A DNA stretch of 32,000 nucleotides from contig PXDW01000025.1 in the NCBI GenBank assembly GCA_003564925.1, positions 1 through 32,000 on the forward strand, given 5' to 3'. Under the pieces are notes generated by a model. That model was given only the letters and a program-made list of their open reading frames with translations, ran no database searches and had not been told where the DNA came from. The position numbers and the translations under genes are program-made. The stretch is from Candidatus Woesearchaeota archaeon (GTDB lineage Archaea; Nanobdellota; Nanobdellia; Woesearchaeales; PXDW01). Shown piece after piece: positions 3,464 through 20,506 of this stretch; within the stretch, counting starts at the first letter, position 1, and every line of letters starts with the position of its first letter.

Positions 3464-4651
3464 GTGAAAAGAAATTTTTTAGATATATTCAAGCTTGTTA
3501 TGCCTATTTCTAGTTATAAGAAGAGCTATCTAAAGAGACTTGGCAAATATCTTGACGAGAATGAGATAAAACAGGTAAGATACCTTTCTAAATTGGGCAG
3601 AATCGGTTTTTCAAATGCTAGCCTTGGTCTTAGTGAAAAGCTTATGCTAGATGTGGATTATCCCCAGCTTAATTTAGCTTCTACAGAAAAAGACATTAAA
3701 AAATTTGTTGAAAATATAAACTCCAACATACATTATAAAATAATGAAGTCAGCATTTAAGCAGTTTTCAGAAAATGCCGAAAAAAAAATAAAAAAATATG
3801 TAGCAGATAACATTGTTGGCTTAGATGTTGTTAAAGAAGCATGCATATTACAGCTTTTCGCATCAGACAGAATCCACATACTTTTACTTGGCGATCCTCA
3901 AACTGGAAAAACAGATATTGTAAGATCTATATCTAACCTGCATCCAATAACCAGCTTTGGTCTGGGATCTGGAATATCGGGAGTTGGGTTAGCATTGACA
4001 GCAAAAGGAGATAATATAATAAAAGGTCTTTTGCCAAAAGCAGACCAGGGAATATGCTGTATAGACGAATTAAATCTAATGAATCAAAAAGACCGGGCTT
4101 CATTATATTCAGCTATGGAAAAGGGATTCGTTGCTTATGACAAAGGGTCAAAACATGTACGACTTGATGCAAATGTTAGGGTTTTAGCAACAGCAAATCC
4201 CAAGCTTGATAAATTTGTAGGAAAAACAGTAGAGGTATTAAAAGAACAGCTTCCGTTTGACGAAGCATTAATCTCGAGATTCAACTTAGTTTTTTTAATA
4301 AGATATCCTGATATTAAGGGATTTCTAGAAATTACTAAAAAGATTGTGCATCAGGATCCGACTGTTTTAGTTAATGAGGACATAAGTTTTATTAAAGAAT
4401 ATGTTAGTTTTGCAGAGAACATAAAAGTCGATTTTCCTAAAGGCCTCGAAAAAGAGGTTGTAAATTTTGTTGAGTATTTAAAAAGAAATGAAGAAGATTT
4501 TTTAGTAAGCGTTGGACCAAGAACCATTATTGGGTTTATTAGGATGTGCAAGGCCAACGCACGCTTAAATCTAAGAACAGAAGTTACGAGAAAAGATATT
4601 GATAAGATAAAAAAAATATTTGAAGAAGTTCTTTTTATAAGAAGAAAATAA
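3464..4651 (+). CDS. MCM-family AAA+ ATPase lacking the canonical N-terminal OB/Zn domain (mini-MCM)
   Basis: Walker A is LLLGDPQTGKTD. Walker B is CCIDELNLM. Sensor 1 is VRVLATANP. The MCM-type arginine finger is ALISRFNLVF. Sensor-2 region is VGPRTIIGFIRMCKANARL. The protein is only 395 aa, with about 140 aa before Walker A and no Cys4 motif. GTG start. Confidence 0.7.
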   Translation: MKRNFLDIFKLVMPISSYKKSYLKRLGKYLDENEIKQVRYLSKLGRIGFSNASLGLSEKLMLDVDYPQLNLASTEKDIKKFVENINSNIHYKIMKSAFKQFSENAEKKIKKYVADNIVGLDVVKEACILQLFASDRIHILLLGDPQTGKTDIVRSISNLHPITSFGLGSGISGVGLALTAKGDNIIKGLLPKADQGICCIDELNLMNQKDRASLYSAMEKGFVAYDKGSKHVRLDANVRVLATANPKLDKFVGKTVEVLKEQLPFDEALISRFNLVFLIRYPDIKGFLEITKKIVHQDPTVLVNEDISFIKEYVSFAENIKVDFPKGLEKEVVNFVEYLKRNEEDFLVSVGPRTIIGFIRMCKANARLNLRTEVTRKDIDKIKKIFEEVLFIRRK

Positions 4652-4665
4652 TAATTATACAAAAG

Positions 4666-4673
4666 TATATAAA
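4666..4673 (+). promoter_or_regulatory. TATA-like box (TATATAAA) upstream of the hypA-like gene
   Basis: Lies 23 nt upstream of ATG 4696, which supports that ATG as the start and a leaderless transcript. Confidence 0.3.
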
Positions 4674-4695
4674 CTAACTCTTTTTGCTCTTGGGA

Positions 4696-5016
4696 ATGCT
4701 TGATACAATTGCTGCAAAAGAGGTTATTTCTCGTGCCAAAAAACATGGCGATGTTAAAAGGATAGTTGTCGAAGTTGGAGATTTTTCATCAACAAAAGCA
4801 GAAGATTTAGAGAAACTATTGAAAAAATTTGTGAATTGGGCTATTGAAGTAATAAAAAAGCCAGCATTTGTTAAATGTTTTTGTGGTTATGAAGGTGAAC
4901 CAAAAGTACTTGAAAGAACGAAGGACTTTGTTATGTTTTGCTGCCCTAAATGCATGCTTGTTCCTGAAGATATAAGTGGAACAAAAATTATATTGAAAAA
5001 AATAATTCTTCAATAA
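4696..5016 (+). CDS. hypA: HypA-like hydrogenase nickel-insertion/Zn-ribbon protein (divergent)
   Basis: Length and layout fit HypA. An N-terminal helix is followed by VKRIVVEVGDFSSTKAEDLEKL, compared with the xVxVxxGxLxxVxPExL pattern. The C-terminal Cys pairs are KCFCGYEG…FCCPKCML. The ORF track starts at TTG 4684. The protein begins MLDT, not the canonical MHE. Confidence 0.55.
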   Translation: MLDTIAAKEVISRAKKHGDVKRIVVEVGDFSSTKAEDLEKLLKKFVNWAIEVIKKPAFVKCFCGYEGEPKVLERTKDFVMFCCPKCMLVPEDISGTKIILKKIILQ

Positions 5017-5048
5017 ATTATTTAAATTCCAAACTCAATTGATTTTAC

Positions 5049-5429
5049 ATGGAAGTTGTATTGGTCTTCGGAAATCCTTATGCAGACGATGATAATCTGG
5101 CTATAGAGATAGCGCAGGACCTGAAGATTGACGGTGTTGATTTCAAAATACTTCAAAACCCCGATGATATTCTAAACTATAAAAAAAATGAAAGGCTGTT
5201 CATACTTGATGTTTTAAGGAATGTCGATGATTTTATACTTGTTAAAGACTACAAAAAATTGGAAGAAAGAAAGATATTCTCTGTTAAAGATTTTGATTTA
5301 GGTTTTTTCTTAGATTTAATCAAAAAAACAGGAAAATTGAAGGAGACAATTATAATTGGGATACCTGAGGACGGAGATAAATTCTTGCTAAAACAAAAAA
5401 TTAAAGATGTGATGGAAAGTTTTAAATAG
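5049..5429 (+). CDS. Hydrogenase maturation endopeptidase-like protein (HycI/HybD/FrhD family, divergent)
   Basis: VLVFGNPYADDDNLAIEIAQDL matches GNxxxGDDGxG. RLFILDV matches the second Asp site. The position equivalent to the conserved His (FSVKDFDLGFFLDL) reads Asp. ETIIIGIPED matches the C-terminal xxGIxP pattern. Confidence 0.55.
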   Translation: MEVVLVFGNPYADDDNLAIEIAQDLKIDGVDFKILQNPDDILNYKKNERLFILDVLRNVDDFILVKDYKKLEERKIFSVKDFDLGFFLDLIKKTGKLKETIIIGIPEDGDKFLLKQKIKDVMESFK

Positions 5430-5450: not shown

Positions 5451-6422
5451 ATGGGCAAGTTGCTTAAAAAAGAAGATTTGAATAGATTTCTTAGTAATCT
5501 AAAGGGAATATATGAAATAATTGCTCCAGTAAAAAAAGATATTGTTAGATATGATGTTATAAAAAATATAAATGAGATATATTTAGATGAAAAGCCTTTT
5601 TTTTCTGCAAAAAAATTCTTTTTTCCTAAAAAAGAAACTTTGTTTGATTTTCCTCAAAGAAGACATTTTAAAAAAAGAATGAAACCAAGGATAATATTCG
5701 GAATGAGAAACTGCGATGCGAATTCTTTGCTTGTTTTAGATAAACTTTATTTGGAAGGTTTCGTAGATGAAAAATACAAGCAAAAAAGGGAAAAAACCAT
5801 AATTATAACGATACCTTGCGATGAACCAGAAGAGAATTGTTTTTGTGGTTCTCTTAACCTGAAAGATTATTATGATTTAAAATTTATAGATATAGGTCCT
5901 TCTTATTATATTGAGGTCGGATCAGAGAAAGGAAAAAGGCTTGTGCACAGGTTTAAAGATCATAAGATGATTGGTGAAAAGCAGGATTTGGACTTTATAA
6001 AAATACTAAATAAAAGGAATGATTTGAAAAAATATTTTAATGACTCTTTATGGGAAAAAGAGGCAGAAAAGTGTTTAAGCTGTTCAATGTGCGTAAATAT
6101 ATGCCCAACATGCACCTGCTTCGATATAGTTGATGAAGTTGATCTTAGCCTTAAAGAGGGAAAAAGGTCAAGAATAAGCGACTCATGCCACCTTAAGTCA
6201 TTCACAGAAATTTCAGGAGGTAAAATTTTCAGAGAGAGCAGATATGAAAGATTAAGACATTTTGTTTTGCATAAGCTTCAATATTTTAAGGATAAGCATA
6301 ATATTAATTTGTGTATTGGATGCGGAAGATGTATAACTATATGCCCTTCTAAAATAGATTTGGTGGAGATCTCGAATAATTTGGGCAAAAATAAAAATCC
6401 TAAAAAACAAAATGATAAATAA
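5451..6422 (+). CDS. Sulfhydrogenase beta (HydB/AsrA-like) Fe-S subunit
   Basis: Two ferredoxin-type motifs, CLSCSMCVNICPTCTC and CIGCGRCITICP, plus an upstream PCDEPEENCFCG cluster. Its position upstream of a PyrK/AsrB-like gene matches the beta-gamma-delta-alpha order of Pyrococcus-type group 3b hydrogenases. Confidence 0.7.
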   Translation: MGKLLKKEDLNRFLSNLKGIYEIIAPVKKDIVRYDVIKNINEIYLDEKPFFSAKKFFFPKKETLFDFPQRRHFKKRMKPRIIFGMRNCDANSLLVLDKLYLEGFVDEKYKQKREKTIIITIPCDEPEENCFCGSLNLKDYYDLKFIDIGPSYYIEVGSEKGKRLVHRFKDHKMIGEKQDLDFIKILNKRNDLKKYFNDSLWEKEAEKCLSCSMCVNICPTCTCFDIVDEVDLSLKEGKRSRISDSCHLKSFTEISGGKIFRESRYERLRHFVLHKLQYFKDKHNINLCIGCGRCITICPSKIDLVEISNNLGKNKNPKKQNDK

Positions 6423-6454: not shown

Positions 6455-7231
6455 ATGGACTATAAGCCTATTCAAGTTGAAATTTTGAAGAAAGAGAAAT
6501 TTACAAAAGACACATTCTTGTTGAGATTGAAGCATAAAGTAAAAGACAATCCAGGAAAATTTTTGATGGTTGGTTTGCTTGGGATAGGCGAATGCCCCAT
6601 ATCTATATGCTCAAGCCAAAAATCATATACGGAGTTATTAATAAAGAAAAAAGGAAAAGTTACTCAAAAATTGTCGGAACTTAAAAAAAAAGATAAAGTT
6701 TATGTAAGGGGGCCTTTGGGTTCTGGTTATCCAATGGAAAATTTAGAGGGAAACAGTCTTGTTTTGATTGGTGTAGAATCAGGAATTGCTTCTTTAAGAT
6801 CTGTGGTTAAATATGTCGAAAAAAAAAGGACAAAGTATAAGGAAATTGAAATATTCCTGGGATTTAAAAATCCAGAGCGTATTATTTTTGATGAAGATAT
6901 AGAAAAATGGAAAAAACAATATAAAACCCACATGATTTTTGACAATAAAGATGAGTCCAATTTCTATGATATCTTTGCAACAGATTTATTTAAAAAACAA
7001 AGTATAAATTTAAACAAGGCTTTTGTTTTAATATGTGTGCCGCCGGATATGATAATTCCAACAATAAAAAAAACAAAGATCTTAGGATTTAAAGATAATA
7101 GGATATATCTAAGTCTTGAGAGGCATATGAAATGTGGTCTTGGAAAATGCGGACATTGCATGATAAAAGGTCATCATATTTGCGTAGATGGGCCTGTTTT
7201 TAGATATGATAATATATCGGATGATTTATAA
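6455..7231 (+). CDS. Sulfhydrogenase gamma (HydG/AsrB/PyrK-like) FAD/NAD(P)-binding subunit with a C-terminal [2Fe-2S]
   Basis: Ferredoxin-reductase-like fold signatures (VRGPLGSGY, LIGVESGIASL). C-terminal MKCGLGKCGHCMI…ICVDGPVF cluster motif. The stop overlaps the next start by 1 nt (TAATG). Confidence 0.75.
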   Translation: MDYKPIQVEILKKEKFTKDTFLLRLKHKVKDNPGKFLMVGLLGIGECPISICSSQKSYTELLIKKKGKVTQKLSELKKKDKVYVRGPLGSGYPMENLEGNSLVLIGVESGIASLRSVVKYVEKKRTKYKEIEIFLGFKNPERIIFDEDIEKWKKQYKTHMIFDNKDESNFYDIFATDLFKKQSINLNKAFVLICVPPDMIIPTIKKTKILGFKDNRIYLSLERHMKCGLGKCGHCMIKGHHICVDGPVFRYDNISDDL

Positions 7232-9321
7232 TGAAGCCAAAAATAGCATTAATTAGCTTGACGGGATGTGGAGGATGTGAATTATCATTGTTATTTACAG
7301 GTGAAGTTTTATTAGACTTAGTCAAGAATTTTGATTTTCGTATCCTTAACATTTTTAATAAGAACAATGTTCAAAATCAATATTCTGAATACGAAGCTGT
7401 TTTTGTTTCTGGTTTGGTTGCAGATAAGCGAGATATTGAATTGTTGCAAAAATATAGAAAAAAATCAAAAATTCTTATTGCATTAGGCGCTTGCTCTGTT
7501 CATGGAAATGTTTATTCTTTGAAACAAACAATAGATTCAACCCATAAAAATCAAGAATTTAACTCTGAAAAATCTAAGAATAGCTCATTGATTGAAGCTG
7601 TCGCATTAAGGCCTATATCAGAATATGTGAAGGTTGATTTTTCAATACCTGGCTGTCCGCCAGATAGCTCTGAAACTATAAGTCATATCAAGGATATAAT
7701 GATTGGAAAAAAGTTAGTTGAAAATGAAAAGCCAGTTTGTTTCCATTGTAGCTTAAATGAAAATTTCTGTTTGCTTAAAAATGGAAAAGAATGCATCGGG
7801 CCTTTAATAAAATCGGGTTGCGACTCTTTATGCCCATCATTCAATAAAGAATGCACTGGCTGCAGAGGCCCAATAAATGATGGAAATATTGACGAAATAA
7901 AAAAAATATTTAGTGATAAAGGAATTAGTTTTGATATATTAAAAGAAAAAATAAGCAAATATGCAAAAATAGAATTTGATAAACTCATGAATAAAGAAAA
8001 TAGAAAAAAGATTGATTATGACATCAAGGAACGAAAGATAATAAAAGAAATAAAGAATAATTCTGAAAATATATCTGGACAATATTCTGTATATTTGGAT
8101 TTGCGTAATGGAAAATTAAACGATTGCAGACTTGAATATTCAGAAAATTCAATATTATTTGAAGAGATATTAAAAGGAAAACATTTTTCCGATATTCCTG
8201 AAATAGTATCCAGGATGTGCGGAATAACTAGTTGTTTTCATGTTATAACTTCTATCAAGGCCATAGAGAATGCATTTAATATACAAATTACAGAGCAAAC
8301 AAAATTATTAAGAGAGCTTTTAGCTATAGGGGAGTTAATAAGAAGCCATTCAATACATATCTATTTAGTCGTACTTCCTAATTATTTTGGATTTGATTCA
8401 GGAATTGAAATGATGTTAAAAAATAAAAAAGAAACTAAAAGAGCACTAGAGCTGATTAATGTGGGAAATAGCCTTATAGAATTGATTGGAGGAAGAGTTA
8501 TTCATCCTGTCACTTTTGAGGTTGGATACAATACTTATGTTCCTGAAAAATCCAAACTTGAAGAGATTTTAAAAATACTGAAAATTTCAAAAAAAGAAGC
8601 TATAAAAACATCAGAGATTTTATTATCATTAGATCTTACTTTTTTTGAAAGGAAAACAGAATATATCTCTCTTAGACAGCTAGATAATTTTCCATCACTA
8701 AGCGGAGATATTATTTCTACGAAGGGATTGAATATAAATCCCCAAACTTATAGAAAATATTTTAATGAGGTTAAATTGCCTAATTCGAAAGGAAAATTAG
8801 TTTTTAAAAATAATAAGACTTACTTTACAGGTGCTTTAGCAAGGGTAAACAATAACTCAAGGCTTTTATGTAAAGAGGCTGAAACATTAGTCAGGAAATC
8901 GAGAAGGAAATTTCCGAATTATAATCCTTTATTGAATAATTTTGCTCAATCTCTTGAGATTATAAACTGGATTGATAGAGCTATAGAAATAATAACTAAT
9001 TGGGATTTCAAGGAAGAGATTAAGCATGATATAAAACCAAAATCTGAAAGAGGTATTGGTGTAACAGAGTCTCCCCAAGGACTACTAATCCATGATTATG
9101 AATTTAATTCAAAAGGCTGTATAAACAAGTGTAGCATTATCACGCCAACAGCTCAGATAATAAAAAACCTTGAAGAAGATATAAAAGCCTATGCTTCACA
9201 AAATTTAACTGACAAACAAGATAATGAAATAAGGTCAGAAATTGAAATGTTGGTTAAATCTTATGGTCTCCAATTGTTTGGCGGGGGAAATACTGTAGAT
9301 TTCATCATAAAAAGGAATTAA
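7231..9321 (+). CDS. Fused [NiFe]-hydrogenase small (delta) plus large (alpha) subunit-like protein, group 3b-like, with a non-canonical active-site motif set
   Basis: N-terminal half has small-subunit motifs: LISLTGCGGCELS, ALGACSVHGN, IPGCPP and CFHCSLNENFC…CIGPLIKSGCDSLCP…CTGCRGP. A K/E/I-rich linker spans about 7970-8060. C-terminal half has large-subunit motifs: SRMCGITSCFHV (L1-like, 8212-8241), GGRVIHP and GVTESPQGLLIHDY…IITPTAQ. The C-terminus reads VKSYGLQLFGGGN (9253-9291) where DPCxxCxxH is expected. Confidence 0.8.
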   Translation: MKPKIALISLTGCGGCELSLLFTGEVLLDLVKNFDFRILNIFNKNNVQNQYSEYEAVFVSGLVADKRDIELLQKYRKKSKILIALGACSVHGNVYSLKQTIDSTHKNQEFNSEKSKNSSLIEAVALRPISEYVKVDFSIPGCPPDSSETISHIKDIMIGKKLVENEKPVCFHCSLNENFCLLKNGKECIGPLIKSGCDSLCPSFNKECTGCRGPINDGNIDEIKKIFSDKGISFDILKEKISKYAKIEFDKLMNKENRKKIDYDIKERKIIKEIKNNSENISGQYSVYLDLRNGKLNDCRLEYSENSILFEEILKGKHFSDIPEIVSRMCGITSCFHVITSIKAIENAFNIQITEQTKLLRELLAIGELIRSHSIHIYLVVLPNYFGFDSGIEMMLKNKKETKRALELINVGNSLIELIGGRVIHPVTFEVGYNTYVPEKSKLEEILKILKISKKEAIKTSEILLSLDLTFFERKTEYISLRQLDNFPSLSGDIISTKGLNINPQTYRKYFNEVKLPNSKGKLVFKNNKTYFTGALARVNNNSRLLCKEAETLVRKSRRKFPNYNPLLNNFAQSLEIINWIDRAIEIITNWDFKEEIKHDIKPKSERGIGVTESPQGLLIHDYEFNSKGCINKCSIITPTAQIIKNLEEDIKAYASQNLTDKQDNEIRSEIEMLVKSYGLQLFGGGNTVDFIIKRN

Positions 9322-9417: not shown

Positions 9418-9975
9418 ATGTCATTTGTTGATTTTTTAGTAATTTTAGGGACCGGCCTTTGGAGCTTATTTTTAATCTGGATTTCAATTTTTATAGCACC
9501 TTTTAGAAATCCAGAGGTTCTTTGGATATTGATACCCATATATTTATTCTGGATATTTACTGAGATATACCAGGAAAAAAGAAAAACCAGCTTTGGGAAT
9601 GCAATATCTAATGGGGCTGTTGTTCTTTGGGTAGGAATTGACTGGACAAGATATTTGATAAGGCAATTAGGGACCGATATGTCTTTGGGCTTTGATTTTT
9701 ATTCAAAAATAGCGCTTTCTATATTTGTATTTGTTTATGGGGTTGTAATAATATTGTATGGCATAAAAGTAAAAAGATTTATTCCAAGAATTGGAAGAAT
9801 AAGAGAAATAACTTACGTTCTTATAATGTTCACTCCAATAATATATGGTGTAGTGAAATTAAATTTTCAAACTATATCTGCAATTGTTTTATTTTTCCTG
9901 CCTTTTTATTTCATAATAGAGTTTATAAACCGTAAAGTTCCAGATCCTTCAACTTATGAAGGTTCTTCATTATAA
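9418..9975 (+). CDS. Integral membrane protein of unknown function (about 5 TM segments)
   Basis: Hydrophobic segments throughout (LVILGTGLWSLFLIWISIFIAPF, VLWILIPIYLFWIF, and others). GAGGTG SD at 9408-9413. Confidence 0.55.
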   Translation: MSFVDFLVILGTGLWSLFLIWISIFIAPFRNPEVLWILIPIYLFWIFTEIYQEKRKTSFGNAISNGAVVLWVGIDWTRYLIRQLGTDMSLGFDFYSKIALSIFVFVYGVVIILYGIKVKRFIPRIGRIREITYVLIMFTPIIYGVVKLNFQTISAIVLFFLPFYFIIEFINRKVPDPSTYEGSSL

Positions 9976-15735: not shown

Positions 15736-16326
15736 TTATTTTTCATTCATAAGGTATTTCTTTGCATTATGAATTCCTGTAGCGAAAATCCCTCCTGCCA
15801 CTGCTGTATAAAATTGAAATAAACCCATAGTCATTAGAAAAATTGAAGGAACAAGGTTGAATTTATAAAGTGCAAATGCCGCGCTGAAAATAAAAATAGA
15901 TTTTATCGTAGCTCCAAACACAATAACAAACATCATGTTTTTTTTATTTTCTAATCTTAATTTCTTAAAACAATACACTAATATTGCATTTCCGATCCAT
16001 ATAAATGGAATCATAAAAATCAAGAAATAAGTGAAATGTCCAAATATGATTCCTCTGGATAAAACCGCTAAGCTTGGAAGCATTATTGATGGAAACAACA
16101 TCTTGGATTTTAGATTTAATGCGCTCAGGACTAAAGATGCATTAACAATTATGCCTACAACTAATTGAGGATTCCCTATAAAGAAAGGGACAAAAAAACA
16201 AATTAAAGAGTATAAGGTGAGCTCAAAATATTCTGCCCTCAAGCTTAATTTATAATCTTGAATATTTAGTTTTTCAAATATTTTGTATCTGTTGTAATCC
16301 AATATTTTTCCTATTCTTACATACAT
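15736..16326 (-). CDS. Polytopic membrane protein of unknown function, translationally coupled to hydA
   Basis: About 5-6 hydrophobic helices. ATG at 16326-16324 overlaps the hydA TAA stop by 1 nt (TAATG). The ORF track start is GTG 16338. Confidence 0.5.
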   Translation of the reverse strand: MYVRIGKILDYNRYKIFEKLNIQDYKLSLRAEYFELTLYSLICFFVPFFIGNPQLVVGIIVNASLVLSALNLKSKMLFPSIMLPSLAVLSRGIIFGHFTYFLIFMIPFIWIGNAILVYCFKKLRLENKKNMMFVIVFGATIKSIFIFSAAFALYKFNLVPSIFLMTMGLFQFYTAVAGGIFATGIHNAKKYLMNEK

Positions 16327-18059
16327 TAAAGATAGCACCTTTTTTTGTATTTTGTATGTAGCAGCCTATGCGCTCTTTTTTGCCCTGGTTTTCCAATATA
16401 TTCTTTATATATCTTTATTACCGAAGGATTCAAATGAGACTTTCTTATCTTTGTTTTTTTATCATTGTCTATAATGGCTTTTTGGCGCTGTTTTAAGTTT
16501 TCAATATCATCATATCTGGGCTGTCCGCCTCCCCCTATACATCCTCCATAACAGGCCATAATCTCAACAAAATGATAAGCACAATTTCCTTCCCTAATAT
16601 CTTCCATAATCTTTCTTGCTTCCCCTAATGTATGAACTGCACAGACTTTTATTTCTTTGCCCGCAAGTTTTATACTGCCTTCTTTTATTGTACCAAATCC
16701 CCTTATTTGCTTATAATCAATTTTCCTTAAATCCTTTTTGGTTAAATAATCTGCAGCAGTCCTTAGAGCTGCTTCCATTACTCCTCCTGTTTTTCCAAAT
16801 ATTGTTCCAGCGCCAGTACTTTCTCCTAATGGATTGTCAAACTCTTCTTTTTCAAGATTGACAAAATCAATATTATATTGTTTTATAAGTTTTGCAAGCT
16901 CCACAGTAGTTAAAACATAATCAGCTTCGCCTTTAAATTCGTCTCTTTGAATCTCGAATTTTTTTGCAGTACATGGCATTATATCAACAACAATGATATC
17001 TTTTGGTTTCTTATTTATTTTCTTAGCATAATATGTTTTTACTAATGAGGCAAGCATAGCCTGTGGACTTCTGCAGCTTGACATATGATTAAGCTGCTCA
17101 AAATAAAATTGCTCTGCAAATTTTATCCAGGCCGGACAACATGTAGTAATCATTGGCAAATCCCTATTTTCCTTAAATCGCTTGACAAATTCTGTTGCTT
17201 CTTCAACAATTGTTATATCCGCAGCAAAGTCTGTGCTAAATACCTTATCAAAGCCAATTGCTTTAAGAGCGGCGACCATTTTTCCTGTAACGACAGTTCC
17301 GGGCTTCATATTGAAGCATTCGCCAAGAGTTGCCCTTATTGAGGGGGCGGTTTGCGCCACTAGGAATTTTCCAGAGTTTAAGGCATTTGTCACTTCTTCA
17401 ATATCACTATTTTCTGATAATGCTCCAGTAGGACACACTATTACACATTGGCCGCAGTTTACACAGTTGCTTTTTTCCATGTTCAAACCCAAAGGTGGCG
17501 CAACTTTCATATCAAATCCCCTATTTTGCTTTCCAATTGCATAAACGGTCTGTATACCATTGCAAACTCTTGTGCACTGTTCGCATAGGATACATTTCTC
17601 ATTGTCTCTCCAAATAGAGATGCTTGATTTATCCTTCTTTTCTTTTCTTTTTTCTCCTTCATACCTTATTTTATGAATAAGAAGATCCTCTGAATATCTC
17701 TGCAGTTTGCAGTTCAGGTTTTGGTTGCAAGTAAGACAGTCTCTGTCATGATTTGCTAAAAGAAGCTCAATATTTATTCTTCTTGCCTTCAAGACCCTTG
17801 GGCTTCTTGTATTAACAACCATTCCTTCACGAATATAGGTAGAGCATGAGGGAGCAAGCCTTTTCATTCCTTGAATCTCGACTACACAAAGCCTGCAAGA
17901 GCCAATTCGCTCCAGCCTTTCATTTGTACAAATATGAGGAATTTCAATATTATGTCTTTTTGCAACATCCAGAAGATATTCTCCTCTTTTTCCTTCAACC
18001 TCTTTATTGTCTAAAATGAATTTTATTTTTTCTGAATTTTGCTTTTTTGCTTTTTTCAT
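16326..18059 (-). CDS. hydA: [FeFe] hydrogenase catalytic subunit HydA (CpI-like M3 architecture)
   Basis: All three H-cluster motifs are intact: ITTCCPAWIKF, MPCTAKKFE and EIMACYGGCIGGGGQP. The N-terminal region has a [2Fe-2S] site (SCRLCVVEI), a His-ligated cluster (HDRDCLTCNQNLNC) and two ferredoxin motifs (CILCEQCTRVC, CVNCGQCVIVCP). Confidence 0.92.
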   Translation of the reverse strand: MKKAKKQNSEKIKFILDNKEVEGKRGEYLLDVAKRHNIEIPHICTNERLERIGSCRLCVVEIQGMKRLAPSCSTYIREGMVVNTRSPRVLKARRINIELLLANHDRDCLTCNQNLNCKLQRYSEDLLIHKIRYEGEKRKEKKDKSSISIWRDNEKCILCEQCTRVCNGIQTVYAIGKQNRGFDMKVAPPLGLNMEKSNCVNCGQCVIVCPTGALSENSDIEEVTNALNSGKFLVAQTAPSIRATLGECFNMKPGTVVTGKMVAALKAIGFDKVFSTDFAADITIVEEATEFVKRFKENRDLPMITTCCPAWIKFAEQFYFEQLNHMSSCRSPQAMLASLVKTYYAKKINKKPKDIIVVDIMPCTAKKFEIQRDEFKGEADYVLTTVELAKLIKQYNIDFVNLEKEEFDNPLGESTGAGTIFGKTGGVMEAALRTAADYLTKKDLRKIDYKQIRGFGTIKEGSIKLAGKEIKVCAVHTLGEARKIMEDIREGNCAYHFVEIMACYGGCIGGGGQPRYDDIENLKQRQKAIIDNDKKTKIRKSHLNPSVIKIYKEYIGKPGQKRAHRLLHTKYKKRCYL

Positions 18060-18110
18060 TTTGTATTTTTTAATTAATTGTGATTTTATTGATTTTGTTT
18101 TCTCGAGTTA

Positions 18111-19844
18111 TTATTTTTTTTCTATAGCCTTGAACGCACAAACTATATAACATTGCCCGCACTTTATACATTTTTCTTGGTCTATTATATGCATTTTTTT
18201 CTGCTTTCCTTCTATTGCATTTACAGGGCATACTTTGGAACACGCTCCACATCCTACACAATTTTCATTTATTGTGTATGAAAGCAATGCCTCGCACACG
18301 CCTGCAGAACATTTCTTTTCCTTTATATGCATTATATACTCTTTTTTAAAGTGTTTTAATGTTGAAATAATAGGGTTAGGGGCATTTTGGCCAAGTCCAC
18401 AAAGCGAGGTATCTTGAACAAATTCTGCAAGCTCTTGTATTCTTTTTAAAGTTTCTTCTGTGCCATTTCCTCTTGATATCTGAGTTAACATCTCAAGCAG
18501 CCTTTTTGTCCCTTCTCTGCAAGGAGTGCATTTCCCGCAGCTTTCCTCTTGTGTAAAACTTGTAAAGTATTTTGCAACACTTACCATACACGATGTGTTG
18601 TTTGTTATAATAAACCCTCCCGAGCCCATAATTGTTCCCAGACTTGCCATAACCTCAAAATCCAGAGGATTTTCCAAATCTTTTTTTGTAAGACATCCTC
18701 CTGCAGGCCCTCCCGAGAGGAGCGCTTTAAATTTTGTATTATCGGGACAACCTCCCCCAATAGAGAAAACAATTTCTTTAATTTTTATTCCGAATGGAAC
18801 CTCTATAACTCCTGTTCTTTTAACTTTTCCAGTTAGGCATAATATTTTTGTTCCTTTAGTATTCTTTGTTCCTATTTTTTTATATTCCTTTAAGCCTATT
18901 TTGAATATAGTTGTTACGTGCCCCCATGTTCCAACATTATTTACATTAGTAGGTTTTCTGTACAGCCCTTTTTCTCCAGGATATGGCGGCCTAGACATAG
19001 GATGGCCTCTTTTGCCTTCTATGCTTCTAATCATTGCTGTTTCCTCTCCACATACAAAAGCGCCAGCCCCTTTAATAATTTTTAATTCAAAATCAAATCC
19101 TTTTTTTCCAAGGATATTTTTGCCTAGAAGATTATTTTTGTAAGCCAAATCGATTGCATTTTGTAAAGTTTTTATTGCAAGGGGGTACTCCGCTCTTGTA
19201 TATATTATTCCTTCTTTTGCATTGGTTGCATAGGATCCTATAGTCATGCCCTCTATTATTCTAAAAGGATCAGATTCCATAAGAGCCCTGTTCATAAAAG
19301 CTCCTGGATCACCTTCATCTCCGTTGCATATTAAGTATTTTTCTCCTTTCTTTTTTGCTATAATCTGCCATTTTTTTCCAGTAGAAAATCCAGCCCCACC
19401 TCTTCCCCTAAGCTCGGCATCAAGAATTTCCTTAATAACTTCGGCAGGGGTGAGTGAAAGGGCTTTTTTTAATGAGCTGTACCCTCCTTTCTCTAAATAA
19501 TCTTCAATTTTATCTGGGTTTATAATTCCGCAATTTTCCATTACTATCCTTTTTTGTTTTTTATAGAAATTTAAGGAATCAATATTTTTTGCTATAAAAA
19601 GCTCTCTGCACATTTTATTTTTCTTTATGCAGTCAATCAAATCCTTGACATTTCTCTCTGTTACATTTCCATAAATCTCTTTGCTTTTTTCTTTAATTAC
19701 AGTAACAATAGGCTCATTATAGCACATACCTATACATCCTACTTTTTCAACAGGAAGATTGGCTTTTTTTAACTCATTGTATACTGGCATAGCTCCTGAT
19801 GATATCCCACAGGTTGCAAGCCCGACTGTAATTTTTTTTATCAT
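18111..19844 (-). CDS. hydB: HydB / NuoF-like flavoprotein subunit of a bifurcating-type [FeFe] hydrogenase
   Basis: N-terminal thioredoxin-like [2Fe-2S] region (GLATCGISSGA…CIGMCYNEP). NADH/FMN motifs GRGGAGFSTGKKW and GAGAFVCGEETA. CGKCTPCREG. C-terminal 2x[4Fe-4S] (CVGCGACSKVCP, CIKCGQCYIVC). Confidence 0.9.
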   Translation of the reverse strand: MIKKITVGLATCGISSGAMPVYNELKKANLPVEKVGCIGMCYNEPIVTVIKEKSKEIYGNVTERNVKDLIDCIKKNKMCRELFIAKNIDSLNFYKKQKRIVMENCGIINPDKIEDYLEKGGYSSLKKALSLTPAEVIKEILDAELRGRGGAGFSTGKKWQIIAKKKGEKYLICNGDEGDPGAFMNRALMESDPFRIIEGMTIGSYATNAKEGIIYTRAEYPLAIKTLQNAIDLAYKNNLLGKNILGKKGFDFELKIIKGAGAFVCGEETAMIRSIEGKRGHPMSRPPYPGEKGLYRKPTNVNNVGTWGHVTTIFKIGLKEYKKIGTKNTKGTKILCLTGKVKRTGVIEVPFGIKIKEIVFSIGGGCPDNTKFKALLSGGPAGGCLTKKDLENPLDFEVMASLGTIMGSGGFIITNNTSCMVSVAKYFTSFTQEESCGKCTPCREGTKRLLEMLTQISRGNGTEETLKRIQELAEFVQDTSLCGLGQNAPNPIISTLKHFKKEYIMHIKEKKCSAGVCEALLSYTINENCVGCGACSKVCPVNAIEGKQKKMHIIDQEKCIKCGQCYIVCAFKAIEKK

Positions 19845-19906
19845 TTTTCTATTGGATTATTTTTTTTTATTGTTTTAAGCCATTATTTTTTATAAGCTAC
19901 TAAAAA

Positions 19907-20506
19907 TTATTCCAAACCATCCAAAATTTTTTTAATCTTTTCTTCGTCAAGATCACCATATACAGTATTGTTAATCATCATAGCCGGGGCTTTTGCGCAA
20001 GCCCCTATACAATTGACAGATCCTAAGCTAAATTTTTTGTCCTTGGTTGTTTCATTTACTTTTATATCAAGGATATTCTCTATATATCTTATTAAAGACA
20101 CGGAGTTTTTTACGTGGCATGCTGTCCCGTTGCAAACAGCAATATTATATTTTCCCGGAGGATTAAACCTAAAATATGTATAGAATGTCAGAACACCATA
20201 AATATGGGTGGCAGGTATATTAATCTCTTTTGACAGTCTTATTATATTTTCTTCTGATATGTATCCTTCATTTTCCTGTATTTCCTGGAGCATTATTATT
20301 ACATTTTTTTTCTGTTTTTTTTCAAATAATTCTGGATTGGATTTGACATCTTTAAGAAATTTCTTTTTTAGGGAATTAAGATATTCTGTATTCGGCTTTT
20401 TTTTCCCTATATATCTAATATAAGGCTTGAATTTTTCATTTTGTATTGAATAGAAAAGAAAGAAATAGCTATTATTTCCTAATTGCACCTCTTTTAAAAA
20501 AACCAT
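19907..20506 (-). CDS. hydC: HydC / NuoE-like [2Fe-2S] subunit
   Basis: GVLTFYTYFRFNPPGKYNIAVCNGTACHV…CIGACAKAP. The N-terminal 55 aa or so are unconserved-looking, so the start codon is uncertain. Confidence 0.8.
   Translation of the reverse strand: MVFLKEVQLGNNSYFFLFYSIQNEKFKPYIRYIGKKKPNTEYLNSLKKKFLKDVKSNPELFEKKQKKNVIIMLQEIQENEGYISEENIIRLSKEINIPATHIYGVLTFYTYFRFNPPGKYNIAVCNGTACHVKNSVSLIRYIENILDIKVNETTKDKKFSLGSVNCIGACAKAPAMMINNTVYGDLDEEKIKKILDGLE

Follow-up and report, generated by a model that had tools for sequence, protein, structure and literature searches.

HypA and the maturation protease, two helper proteins of [NiFe] hydrogenases, are understood almost wholly through nickel, which the former delivers and the latter takes as its cutting signal. 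Here, we describe a pair of such helpers that have lost their nickel-related histidines beside a hydrogenase whose Ni-Fe site has degenerated. They are encoded in a stretch of 32,000 nucleotides (the window; positions 1 to 32,000, forward strand, of contig PXDW01000025.1) from a Candidatus Woesearchaeota metagenome-assembled genome (MAG; GCA_003564925.1) of 0.88 Mb in 119 contigs, which is 77% complete and has 32% GC. The window is a single contig, and all observations made on it come from this single MAG lineage. On its plus strand, a compact operon encodes a HypA-like protein, a protease-like protein, the beta and gamma subunits of a group 3b hydrogenase and a fused small plus large subunit.

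In the T. kodakarensis HypA–HypB complex, the nickel ligands are the N-terminal amine, His2 and, from the Zn domain, His98; His2 of HypA has been reported to be critical for nickel binding and hydrogenase activity (PMC7055735). The features of the two helper genes that bear on this chemistry are the following.

4666–4673, plus strand: TATA-like box, 22 nucleotides 5' of the hypA-like ATG; same position and similar sequence in the syntenic loci L006 and L048
4696–5016, plus strand: HypA-derived protein of 106 residues beginning MLDT; HypA fold and Zn site intact, His2 and His76 lost
4699–4701, plus strand: codon 2, CTT (Leu); CAT, for His2 of the MH[ED] nickel motif, in the relatives sampled as DNA
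4876–4953, plus strand: Zn-ribbon segment, C-x-C...C-P-x-C, retaining C61, C63, C83 and C86, columns invariant in the HypA alignment (A4)
4921–4923, plus strand: codon 76, AAG (Lys), for a family-invariant His (CAT) between the two Cys pairs
5017–5048, plus strand: 32-nucleotide spacer between hypA and the protease gene, from which hypC, a second hypC-family gene (157 residues) and an opposite-strand EamA gene have been deleted
5049–5429, plus strand: derivative of a HycI/HybD-type maturation endopeptidase, 126 residues; D15 and D54 kept, canonical His replaced by Lys80
5091–5093, plus strand: retained Asp15, at the position of the first acidic metal ligand in HybD/HycI
5208–5210, plus strand: Asp54, counterpart of the second acidic ligand, retained
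5286–5288, plus strand: codon 80, AAA (Lys), at the canonical His column; KDFDLG where the family has HDFDLG

The HypA-like open reading frame (ORF) matches Pfam PF01155 with an E-value of 3.3e-5 (24.3 bits), below the cut-off of 28.9 that the HypA proteins of its relatives pass, and, as the N-terminal nickel motif fails to match, the alignment to the profile does not begin before position 13. NCBIfam PRK00762 gave an E-value of 1e-7, and TIGR00100 gave 18.5 bits, not reaching its cut-off of 88.1. An AlphaFold2 (AF2) model built on 21 family sequences (pLDDT 87.6) returned exclusively HypA among its top 12 Foldseek matches in the PDB, including the T. kodakarensis HyhL–HypA and HypAB–Ni complexes, and the family profile found 3A43 at an E-value of 3e-6. 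As judged from the model, the ORF is a true HypA homologue with the two-domain HypA fold, in line with the first-pass annotation of this DNA, which had recognised the HypA layout and the Zn cysteines in the sequence.

The ATG at 4696 is the start codon: it aligns with the ATG of the relatives behind the positionally conserved TATA-like box, the position of which implies a putative leaderless or near-leaderless transcript. The upstream TTG at 4684 was considered as an alternative start and rejected, as it adds only MLLG, no in-frame His occurs upstream and the relatives use the same ATG. The loss of His2, which the first-pass annotation had read from the MLDT start, holds up accordingly at the codon level, and neither another start nor a profile alignment restores a His at the canonical columns. 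A second lost His, at position 76, had escaped that annotation.

Among the 20 relatives from the same order in the HypA alignment, 12–13 columns are invariant. The N-terminus reads MH[ED] in all 20 (one as MSHE), and all 20 carry His76; a second, independent sample of 80 species-representative loci, 31 of them with a neighbouring HypA gene, gave the same result at both positions (31/31 each). The window HypA departs from exactly two of the invariant columns, both histidines (H2L and H76K), leaving 10–11 of the 12–13 intact; D3 is also retained. No other sequence in the alignment has a radical change at an invariant column. All four Zn cysteines are present in 30 of the 31 further loci. In the profile alignment, a 14-residue T. 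kodakarensis insertion that contains His98 lies directly after the His76 column, and His76 is, by its position, the likely counterpart of His98. We also observed that the DPANN subfamily of HypA is short (105–110 residues) and that its first Zn pair is always C-x-C-G in place of the textbook CxxC.

The protease-like ORF had no Pfam match to PF01750 at E≤1, and TIGR00072 gave an E-value of 1.8e-3 (18.3 bits, cut-off of 47.45 not reached). Its AF2 model (pLDDT 86.7) is matched in the PDB by hydrogenase maturation endopeptidases at all of the top 8 positions, including 5IJA (TM score 0.72), 1CFZ, 3PU6, 2KML, 5TTX, 2I8L (0.71) and 2E85. On the strength of the model, the ORF has the HybD/HycI [NiFe]-hydrogenase maturation-protease fold. 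PDB sequence alignments of this family are partial and weak, and sufficed for the three ligand columns, not for placing the family by sequence alone. In these alignments, D15 falls on the aspartate of 5IJA GNELMKDD, D54 on the aspartate of 5IJA IID, and the family His on the histidine of 5TTX TLHEVGL. The acidic sites noted from the sequence at first pass are thus located on ligand columns of solved proteases.

A profile search of 1.84 billion cluster representatives retrieved 755 relatives of the protease-like protein, and 161 family members were aligned. Relatives found through this protein bear the labels Woesearchaeota, Nanoarchaeota, Pacearchaeota and other DPANN. The family motif is S-[LM]-H-D-F-D-L-G, with His in 160 of the 161; the lone exception is the window protein, with Lys80. 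The His was also present in all of 80 further loci that had been retrieved with a pattern excluding it. The adjacent Asp81 is a separate conserved residue (158/161), and D15, D54, D81 and D83 are all intact in the window protein. The first-pass annotation was correct in calling the canonical His lost; the Asp that it named as the replacement came from an alignment that was one residue off, and the residue in that column is Lys80. This ~125-residue DPANN family (HDFDLG; at least 755 cluster representatives) mostly escapes PF01750 and is probably under-annotated in MAGs. In one of its loci, L019 (genome G004, minus strand), the protease-like gene is split over two reading frames by an apparent frameshift; that genome has hypCDE and a canonical large subunit.

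The large subunit next to which these helpers are encoded has the following relevant features.

7231–9321, plus strand: fused small (delta) and large (alpha) subunit, 696 residues; large-subunit part without Ni-Fe ligands
8212–8235, plus strand: degenerate N-terminal ligand motif RMCGITSC (relatives RICGICSC), the second ligand Cys replaced by Thr
9265–9291, plus strand: GLQLFGGGN for DPCFSCSTH, the five motif residues all replaced in frame

Of the four Ni-Fe ligand cysteines, the first one of the N-terminal motif has been kept and the other three are lost. All of 20 order-level relatives have RICGxCS and DPCxSCxxH followed by a tail of 5–13 residues, the C-terminal motif is kept in 64 of the 64 large subunits of the 80-locus sample, and 119 of the 120 nearest protein clusters in a 5.8-billion-protein collection keep both Cys pairs, the window protein being the only one without both motifs. 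The window alpha subunit departs at 20 of 58 columns that are invariant in 19 relatives, and these departures are clustered in the N-terminal EGH, both ligand motifs and the PRG arginine. A frameshift at the large-subunit C-terminus was rejected as an explanation: no DPC motif occurs in any frame, and the substitutions are in frame. The absence of DPCxxCxxH reported at first pass is confirmed; the accompanying statement that the protein has no C-terminal extension is not, as a 9-residue tail after the former His position (9292–9318) is retained.

The codons of the former DPCxxCxxH motif differ at about half of their nucleotides, which suggests that the nickel site was lost early on the window branch. 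Within the replaced motif, at 9277–9288, lies a GC-rich run, GGCGGGGGA, that encodes GGG in this 32%-GC genome; it may mark the replacement of a single patch, as opposed to stepwise substitution. In another large subunit, L016:676-2343 (genome G002), which is canonical (DPCISCSAH), the reading frame runs on into a C-terminal domain of ~130 residues with FHGHLGPYVVVG, FmdE-like in look. If this extra domain is real and not a missed stop codon, the protease would have to release a whole domain.

At the codon level, the His changes are CAT to CTT (H2L), CAT to AAG (H76K) and CAT to AAA (H80K), two of the three requiring two nucleotides each. The residues flanking the lost histidines are the same as in the relatives, though their codons differ synonymously. 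All three changes are private to the window genome among more than 250 sampled family members. An independent 180-nucleotide Logan contig from a salt-lake metagenome run, the probable source sample, is identical over 4630–4809, including the Leu2 codon; the same run otherwise gave one unrelated fragment, and no population variation was readable. Since two-nucleotide His codon changes private to this genome occur together with the 20 private changes in the alpha subunit and with a deletion of hypC (see below), the His losses are supported as coordinated and as something other than sequencing errors.

Judged by descent and synteny, both helper ORFs are orthologues of the corresponding genes in syntenic relatives. 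The window shares with the loci L006, L007 and L144 the colinear block HerA-PIN-HTH-MCM-hypA-...-protease-hydB-hydG-SSU-LSU-ATP-grasp-ACS-POR, in which SSU and LSU are the small and large subunits, and in all syntenic relatives the hypA and protease genes serve the adjacent operon. In every close relative (L006, L139, L140 and L144, and, on another contig, genome G001), the genes after hypA are hypC and the second, 157-residue hypC-family gene, and in L006 and L144 an opposite-strand EamA gene stands between the hypC-family genes and the protease gene. Compared with this arrangement, ~1.6 kb has been deleted between hypA and the protease gene in the window. A tblastn search of the whole genome with a relative's three proteins (two hypC-family, EamA) found nothing. 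The second hypC-family gene has a HypC-like C-terminal part and an N-terminal part of unknown nature, overlaps the end of hypC in all close relatives (L006:8590-9063, L139:1167-1640, L144:6064-6537), and has similar counterparts among the HypC-family matches of several other genomes of the order.

Neither the window nor the genome, at 77% completeness, yielded a hypB, hypC, hypD, hypE or hypF gene; a Pfam HypC search of the genome was also negative, and no NiCoT transporter was found there. The first-pass annotation had used the absence of hypBCDEF from the window as a supporting argument. The absence itself stands and extends to the genome; as an argument, it is only partly informative. In an order-wide survey of 61 relatives, HypD occurred in 8, and among the 24 relatives with a canonical large subunit HypE exceeded the family cut-off in 6 (in a seventh, in two pieces), such that ~17 of the 24 lack HypD and HypE, including a closed genome rated 100% complete. 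HypC, in contrast, is present in 23 of these 24 and absent from the window genome. Because the absence of hypDEF is common across the order, it is not diagnostic for the window genome, and only the loss of hypC is specific. The ~17 Woesearchaeota-like genomes (e.g. G017:C1:327119-330485) that have hypA, hypC and the protease gene without hypD and hypE are an observation in their own right, as Fe(CN)2CO synthesis is unexplained in them.

A second large subunit, a second HypA and a second protease were searched for, and none was found in the 77%-complete genome: it holds one large-subunit match and one HypA match, and a relative's protease identified a single locus by tblastn. The Pfam HycI model had one genome match, weak, at chance level and elsewhere, the window protease gene falling below the model.

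To ask whether the helpers are under constraint, relative amino-acid and non-synonymous (dN) rates were used, synonymous sites being saturated even against the closest relatives (proportion of synonymous differences, pS, 0.55–0.8). Identities for the pairs window–L006, window–L007 (G001) and L006–L007 were 65/67/74% for HypA and 71/60/62% for the protease; 60/62/77% for the gamma subunit HydG, 55/59/80% for SSU and 59/59/83% for LSU; and 85/78/78% for ACS, 87/82/86% for POR beta and 81/77/81% for HydB. Splitting pairwise dN by hand into three branches gave a window-branch dN of 0.13 for HypA, against 0.12 and 0.09 on the sister branches, and of 0.12 for the protease, against 0.08 and 0.18, compared with 0.23 for LSU (sisters 0.05), 0.26 for SSU, 0.20 for HydG and ~0.05 for ACS and POR. 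LSU and SSU have thus evolved ~4–5 times faster than their sisters, and neither helper is markedly faster. With closer relatives added, the helpers were at most 1.1–1.4 times more distant than the sisters, and the unaffected HydB 1.2 times. Where pairwise dN/dS was computable for HypA, it was ~0.1–0.23, like that of sister–sister pairs; for the protease, the one computable pair gave 0.095 (against L144), the other pairs being synonymously saturated.

Where the nearest relatives share a residue, the substitutions private to the window are H2L, I10V, Q13R, K22R, D47N, V62F, H76K and V104I in HypA, and E24D, F56L, V64L, H80K, M91I and L121V in the protease. Only the His changes are radical; the rest are conservative. 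For 8 sites drawn at random, the probability of including both HypA histidines is 0.005, and the protease His contributes a further factor of ~0.05. About 4.5% of random single-base changes in the two helper ORFs would create a stop codon, and both ORFs are open. These data point to a lengthy period in which the ligand positions were free to vary, or under selection to change, and the remainder of each protein was probably constrained. With radical change confined to the His ligands and overall rates close to the sister values, the pattern is not one of general relaxation, and a functional shift is favoured over plain decay. Of the two options named at first pass, coordinated functional change or relaxed selection, the data fit the former better.

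Taken together, these results suggest a model in which the helpers have been retained under selection for a nickel-independent role after nickel handling was lost, a reading that we favour with evenly balanced confidence. In this model, the first steps of which are documented by the comparisons with relatives, the hydrogenase of the window lineage lost its Ni-Fe site and underwent fusion of its small and large subunits, deletion removed the hypC genes, and an [FeFe] hydrogenase was gained close by; in parallel, every His that binds or is expected to bind nickel was substituted (H2L and H76K in HypA, H80K in the protease). Both helper proteins would then no longer bind or sense nickel, purifying selection would continue to act on the helper fold, the Zn site and the acidic residues, and the helpers would persist as nickel-independent accessory proteins, not as dead genes awaiting deletion. 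Most plausibly, they would act on the fused, Ni-free delta-alpha scaffold as factors for its docking or assembly. T. kodakarensis HypA has been crystallised bound to the apo large subunit, and a nickel-independent holding or assembly role for HypA is conceivable because of this binding (PMC12134894).

Several points weigh against this model. The evidence consists of the genes of one incomplete MAG, and with synonymous sites saturated (pS 0.55–0.8), selection acting before the loss and selection acting after it are not separable. The His losses may be of recent date, and a single patch event may account for the GC-rich sequence in place of the DPC motif, which would weaken the argument from timing. 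The equivalence of His76 and His98 is positional and unproven. In Salmonella, complexes between the protease and the large subunit were undetectable without the metallocofactor (PMC5299533), and a Ni-free docking role of the protease is disfavoured because complex formation depends on the cofactor in that system (PMC5299533). Complex prediction of each helper with the large-subunit part gave ipSAE values of 0.00–0.03, scores that lend the model no support and are in themselves no evidence against binding.

A more specific variant of nickel-independent retention, which we consider doubtful, is that the two His to Lys changes (HypA K76 and protease K80) are adaptive. The lysine ammonium group would take the place of Ni2+, neutralise the acidic ligands and lock the 'nickel-loaded' conformation, so that the helpers would dock on the scaffold, perhaps with trimming of the tail, as proteins with built-in metal mimics, and the maturation pathway would have become independent of metal.

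The strongest alternative, which we regard as a serious contender and clearly less probable than retention for a nickel-independent role, is that the helpers are relics in slow decay, rendered useless when the Ni-Fe site died and still present because too little time has passed or because their removal would disturb the promoter and first cistron. The hypC genes have indeed already been deleted at the same spot, LSU, SSU and HydG are strongly accelerated in the window lineage, and HypA itself is mildly so (mean distance 1.05–1.27 times that of the sisters). The state is a singleton among the sampled genomes, as a transient condition would be, and the interaction of protease and substrate normally requires the cofactor (PMC5299533). 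Decay would, however, not be expected to leave all private substitutions bar those of the His ligands conservative, nor to spare 10–11 of the 12–13 invariant HypA columns together with D15, D54, D81 and D83 of the protease. Likewise, two His codons with two changes each, beside neighbours fixed at the protein level, would imply a long period of ligand-specific freedom with constraint elsewhere. Both ORFs have also stayed open in a 32%-GC genome despite the ~4.5% of random changes that create stops.

It is also possible, though in our view unlikely, that the helpers were repurposed for another client or metal, be it a neighbouring [FeFe] hydrogenase without HydEFG, the Fe-S clusters of the fused protein or another cation. 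The neighbouring hydrogenase is encoded as follows.

15736–20506, minus strand: [FeFe]-hydrogenase HydABC cluster plus membrane protein, inserted between the POR genes and mscS; other genes at this place in L006 and L007

HydABC was gained 7 kb from the helpers, which are conserved although their original client site is gone, and searches of the genome for HydF and HydG in the HydEFG sense were negative. Known maturases are generally missing for archaeal [FeFe] hydrogenases (PMC11216029). Against repurposing, the sequences contain no new ligand set, His having been replaced by Leu or Lys, which are not metal ligands; the genes still head the 3b-type operon and are not beside hydABC; and no other [FeFe]-bearing relative has such changes.

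It is highly improbable that the helpers are still nickel-competent by way of other residues, in the service of a canonical large subunit whose gene is missing from the assembly. The genome is only 77% complete, and HypA D3 and protease D15 and D54 remain; on the other hand, His2 is reported to be critical for nickel binding and hydrogenase activity (PMC7055735), the genome has one large-subunit match, one HypA match and one protease locus, hypB, C, D, E, F and the NiCoT transporter were not found in it, and the operon next to them is what these genes serve in all syntenic relatives. An artefact of assembly or sequencing, or a chimera, is conceivable for a MAG contig with one public run listed (probably the source sample); it is barely credible given in-frame multi-nucleotide substitutions over four genes, colinearity of the 32-kb contig with relatives and the identical Logan contig covering the Leu2 codon.

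The rest of the operon is as follows.

5451–6422, plus strand: group 3b beta subunit (HydB/AsrA-like, 4Fe-4S), not accelerated
6455–7231, plus strand: group 3b gamma subunit (FAD/NAD(P)-binding, 2Fe-2S), accelerated in the window lineage

Fer4_22, DHODB Fe-S and NAD-binding domains and Oxidored_q6 were detected in the beta, gamma and delta modules. The small-subunit part keeps 12 of 12 Fe-S cysteines, and the fused delta-alpha protein is predicted to carry three Fe-S clusters still. Located 3' of the fused gene, at 9418–9975, is a gene for a 185-residue multi-pass membrane protein with no Pfam match and no counterpart anywhere in the loci fetched from relatives. Many records of the clade (L058, L061, L064 and other 'binchicken' entries) are titled 'uncultured Methanosarcinales archaeon' though they are clearly DPANN/Woesearchaeota-like, which is probably a mislabel by the submitter.

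In the open-access literature, we found no account of HypA or protease homologues that lack these histidines next to a Cys-less large subunit, and such retention has so far been seen in one lineage only. If it is indeed selected, both helpers would have a nickel-independent activity, e.g. in holding or assembling the large-subunit fold. An activity of this kind is hard to isolate in model organisms, and the window set can be compared with canonical relatives that are 65–77% identical; no other sampled relative being alike, it would provide a natural test of what hydrogenase helpers do without nickel. The order-wide survey also raises a wider puzzle: where Woesearchaeota-like genomes have a canonical 3b large subunit, most of them encode hypA, hypC and the protease alone, hypDEF being absent.

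Compared with described HypA proteins (PF01155; T. kodakarensis 3A43, 5AUN and 5YXY; H. pylori 6G81), the window protein shares the N-terminal alpha/beta domain, the Zn ribbon with its four cysteines and the position at the head of a group 3b hydrogenase operon, and is orthologous to the MH[ED]-type HypA of its relatives. It differs in reading MLD instead of MHE/MHD, in carrying Lys for the second invariant His and in falling below the Pfam gathering cut-off; the short length (106 residues) and the C-x-C in place of CxxC at the first Cys pair are traits of the whole DPANN subfamily. The protease-like protein resembles the HybD/HycI/HoxW endopeptidases (PF01750; 1CFZ, 2E85/2I8L, 5IJA, 5TTX) in fold (TM score 0.72 to 5IJA and 0.71 to 2I8L), in both acidic positions and in the location of its gene directly upstream of the hydrogenase structural genes. 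It is unlike them in having Lys for the ligand His and an adjacent large subunit without nickel ligands or cleavage motif, and the whole ~125-residue DPANN subfamily is too divergent for the Pfam model. The window helpers descend from these two families and work, or once worked, in the same manner. As each family is defined by traits that they lack (His2 motif, ligand His, substrate motif, cut-off scores), we would not file them as functional members of either.

The operon as a whole has the beta-gamma-delta-alpha order of the group 3b [NiFe] hydrogenases of Pyrococcus and Thermococcus (HydBGDA/HyhBGSL), with the Fe-S and FAD/NAD(P) modules intact, and is set apart from them by the delta-alpha fusion, by the change of 20 of the 58 invariant alpha columns and by accessory genes that are reduced to two apparently nickel-blind proteins. 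The loss of the Ni-Fe site with retention of the large-subunit fold as a scaffold beside an Fe-S small subunit is familiar from NuoD/NuoB of complex I and from Mbx/Ehr-type complexes. To our knowledge, those systems have retained no HypA-type or protease-type helper genes, whereas the window keeps both, with specific removal of their ligand residues. The window operon represents an early stage in the conversion of a hydrogenase module into a non-hydrogenase redox scaffold, as occurred en route to complex I.

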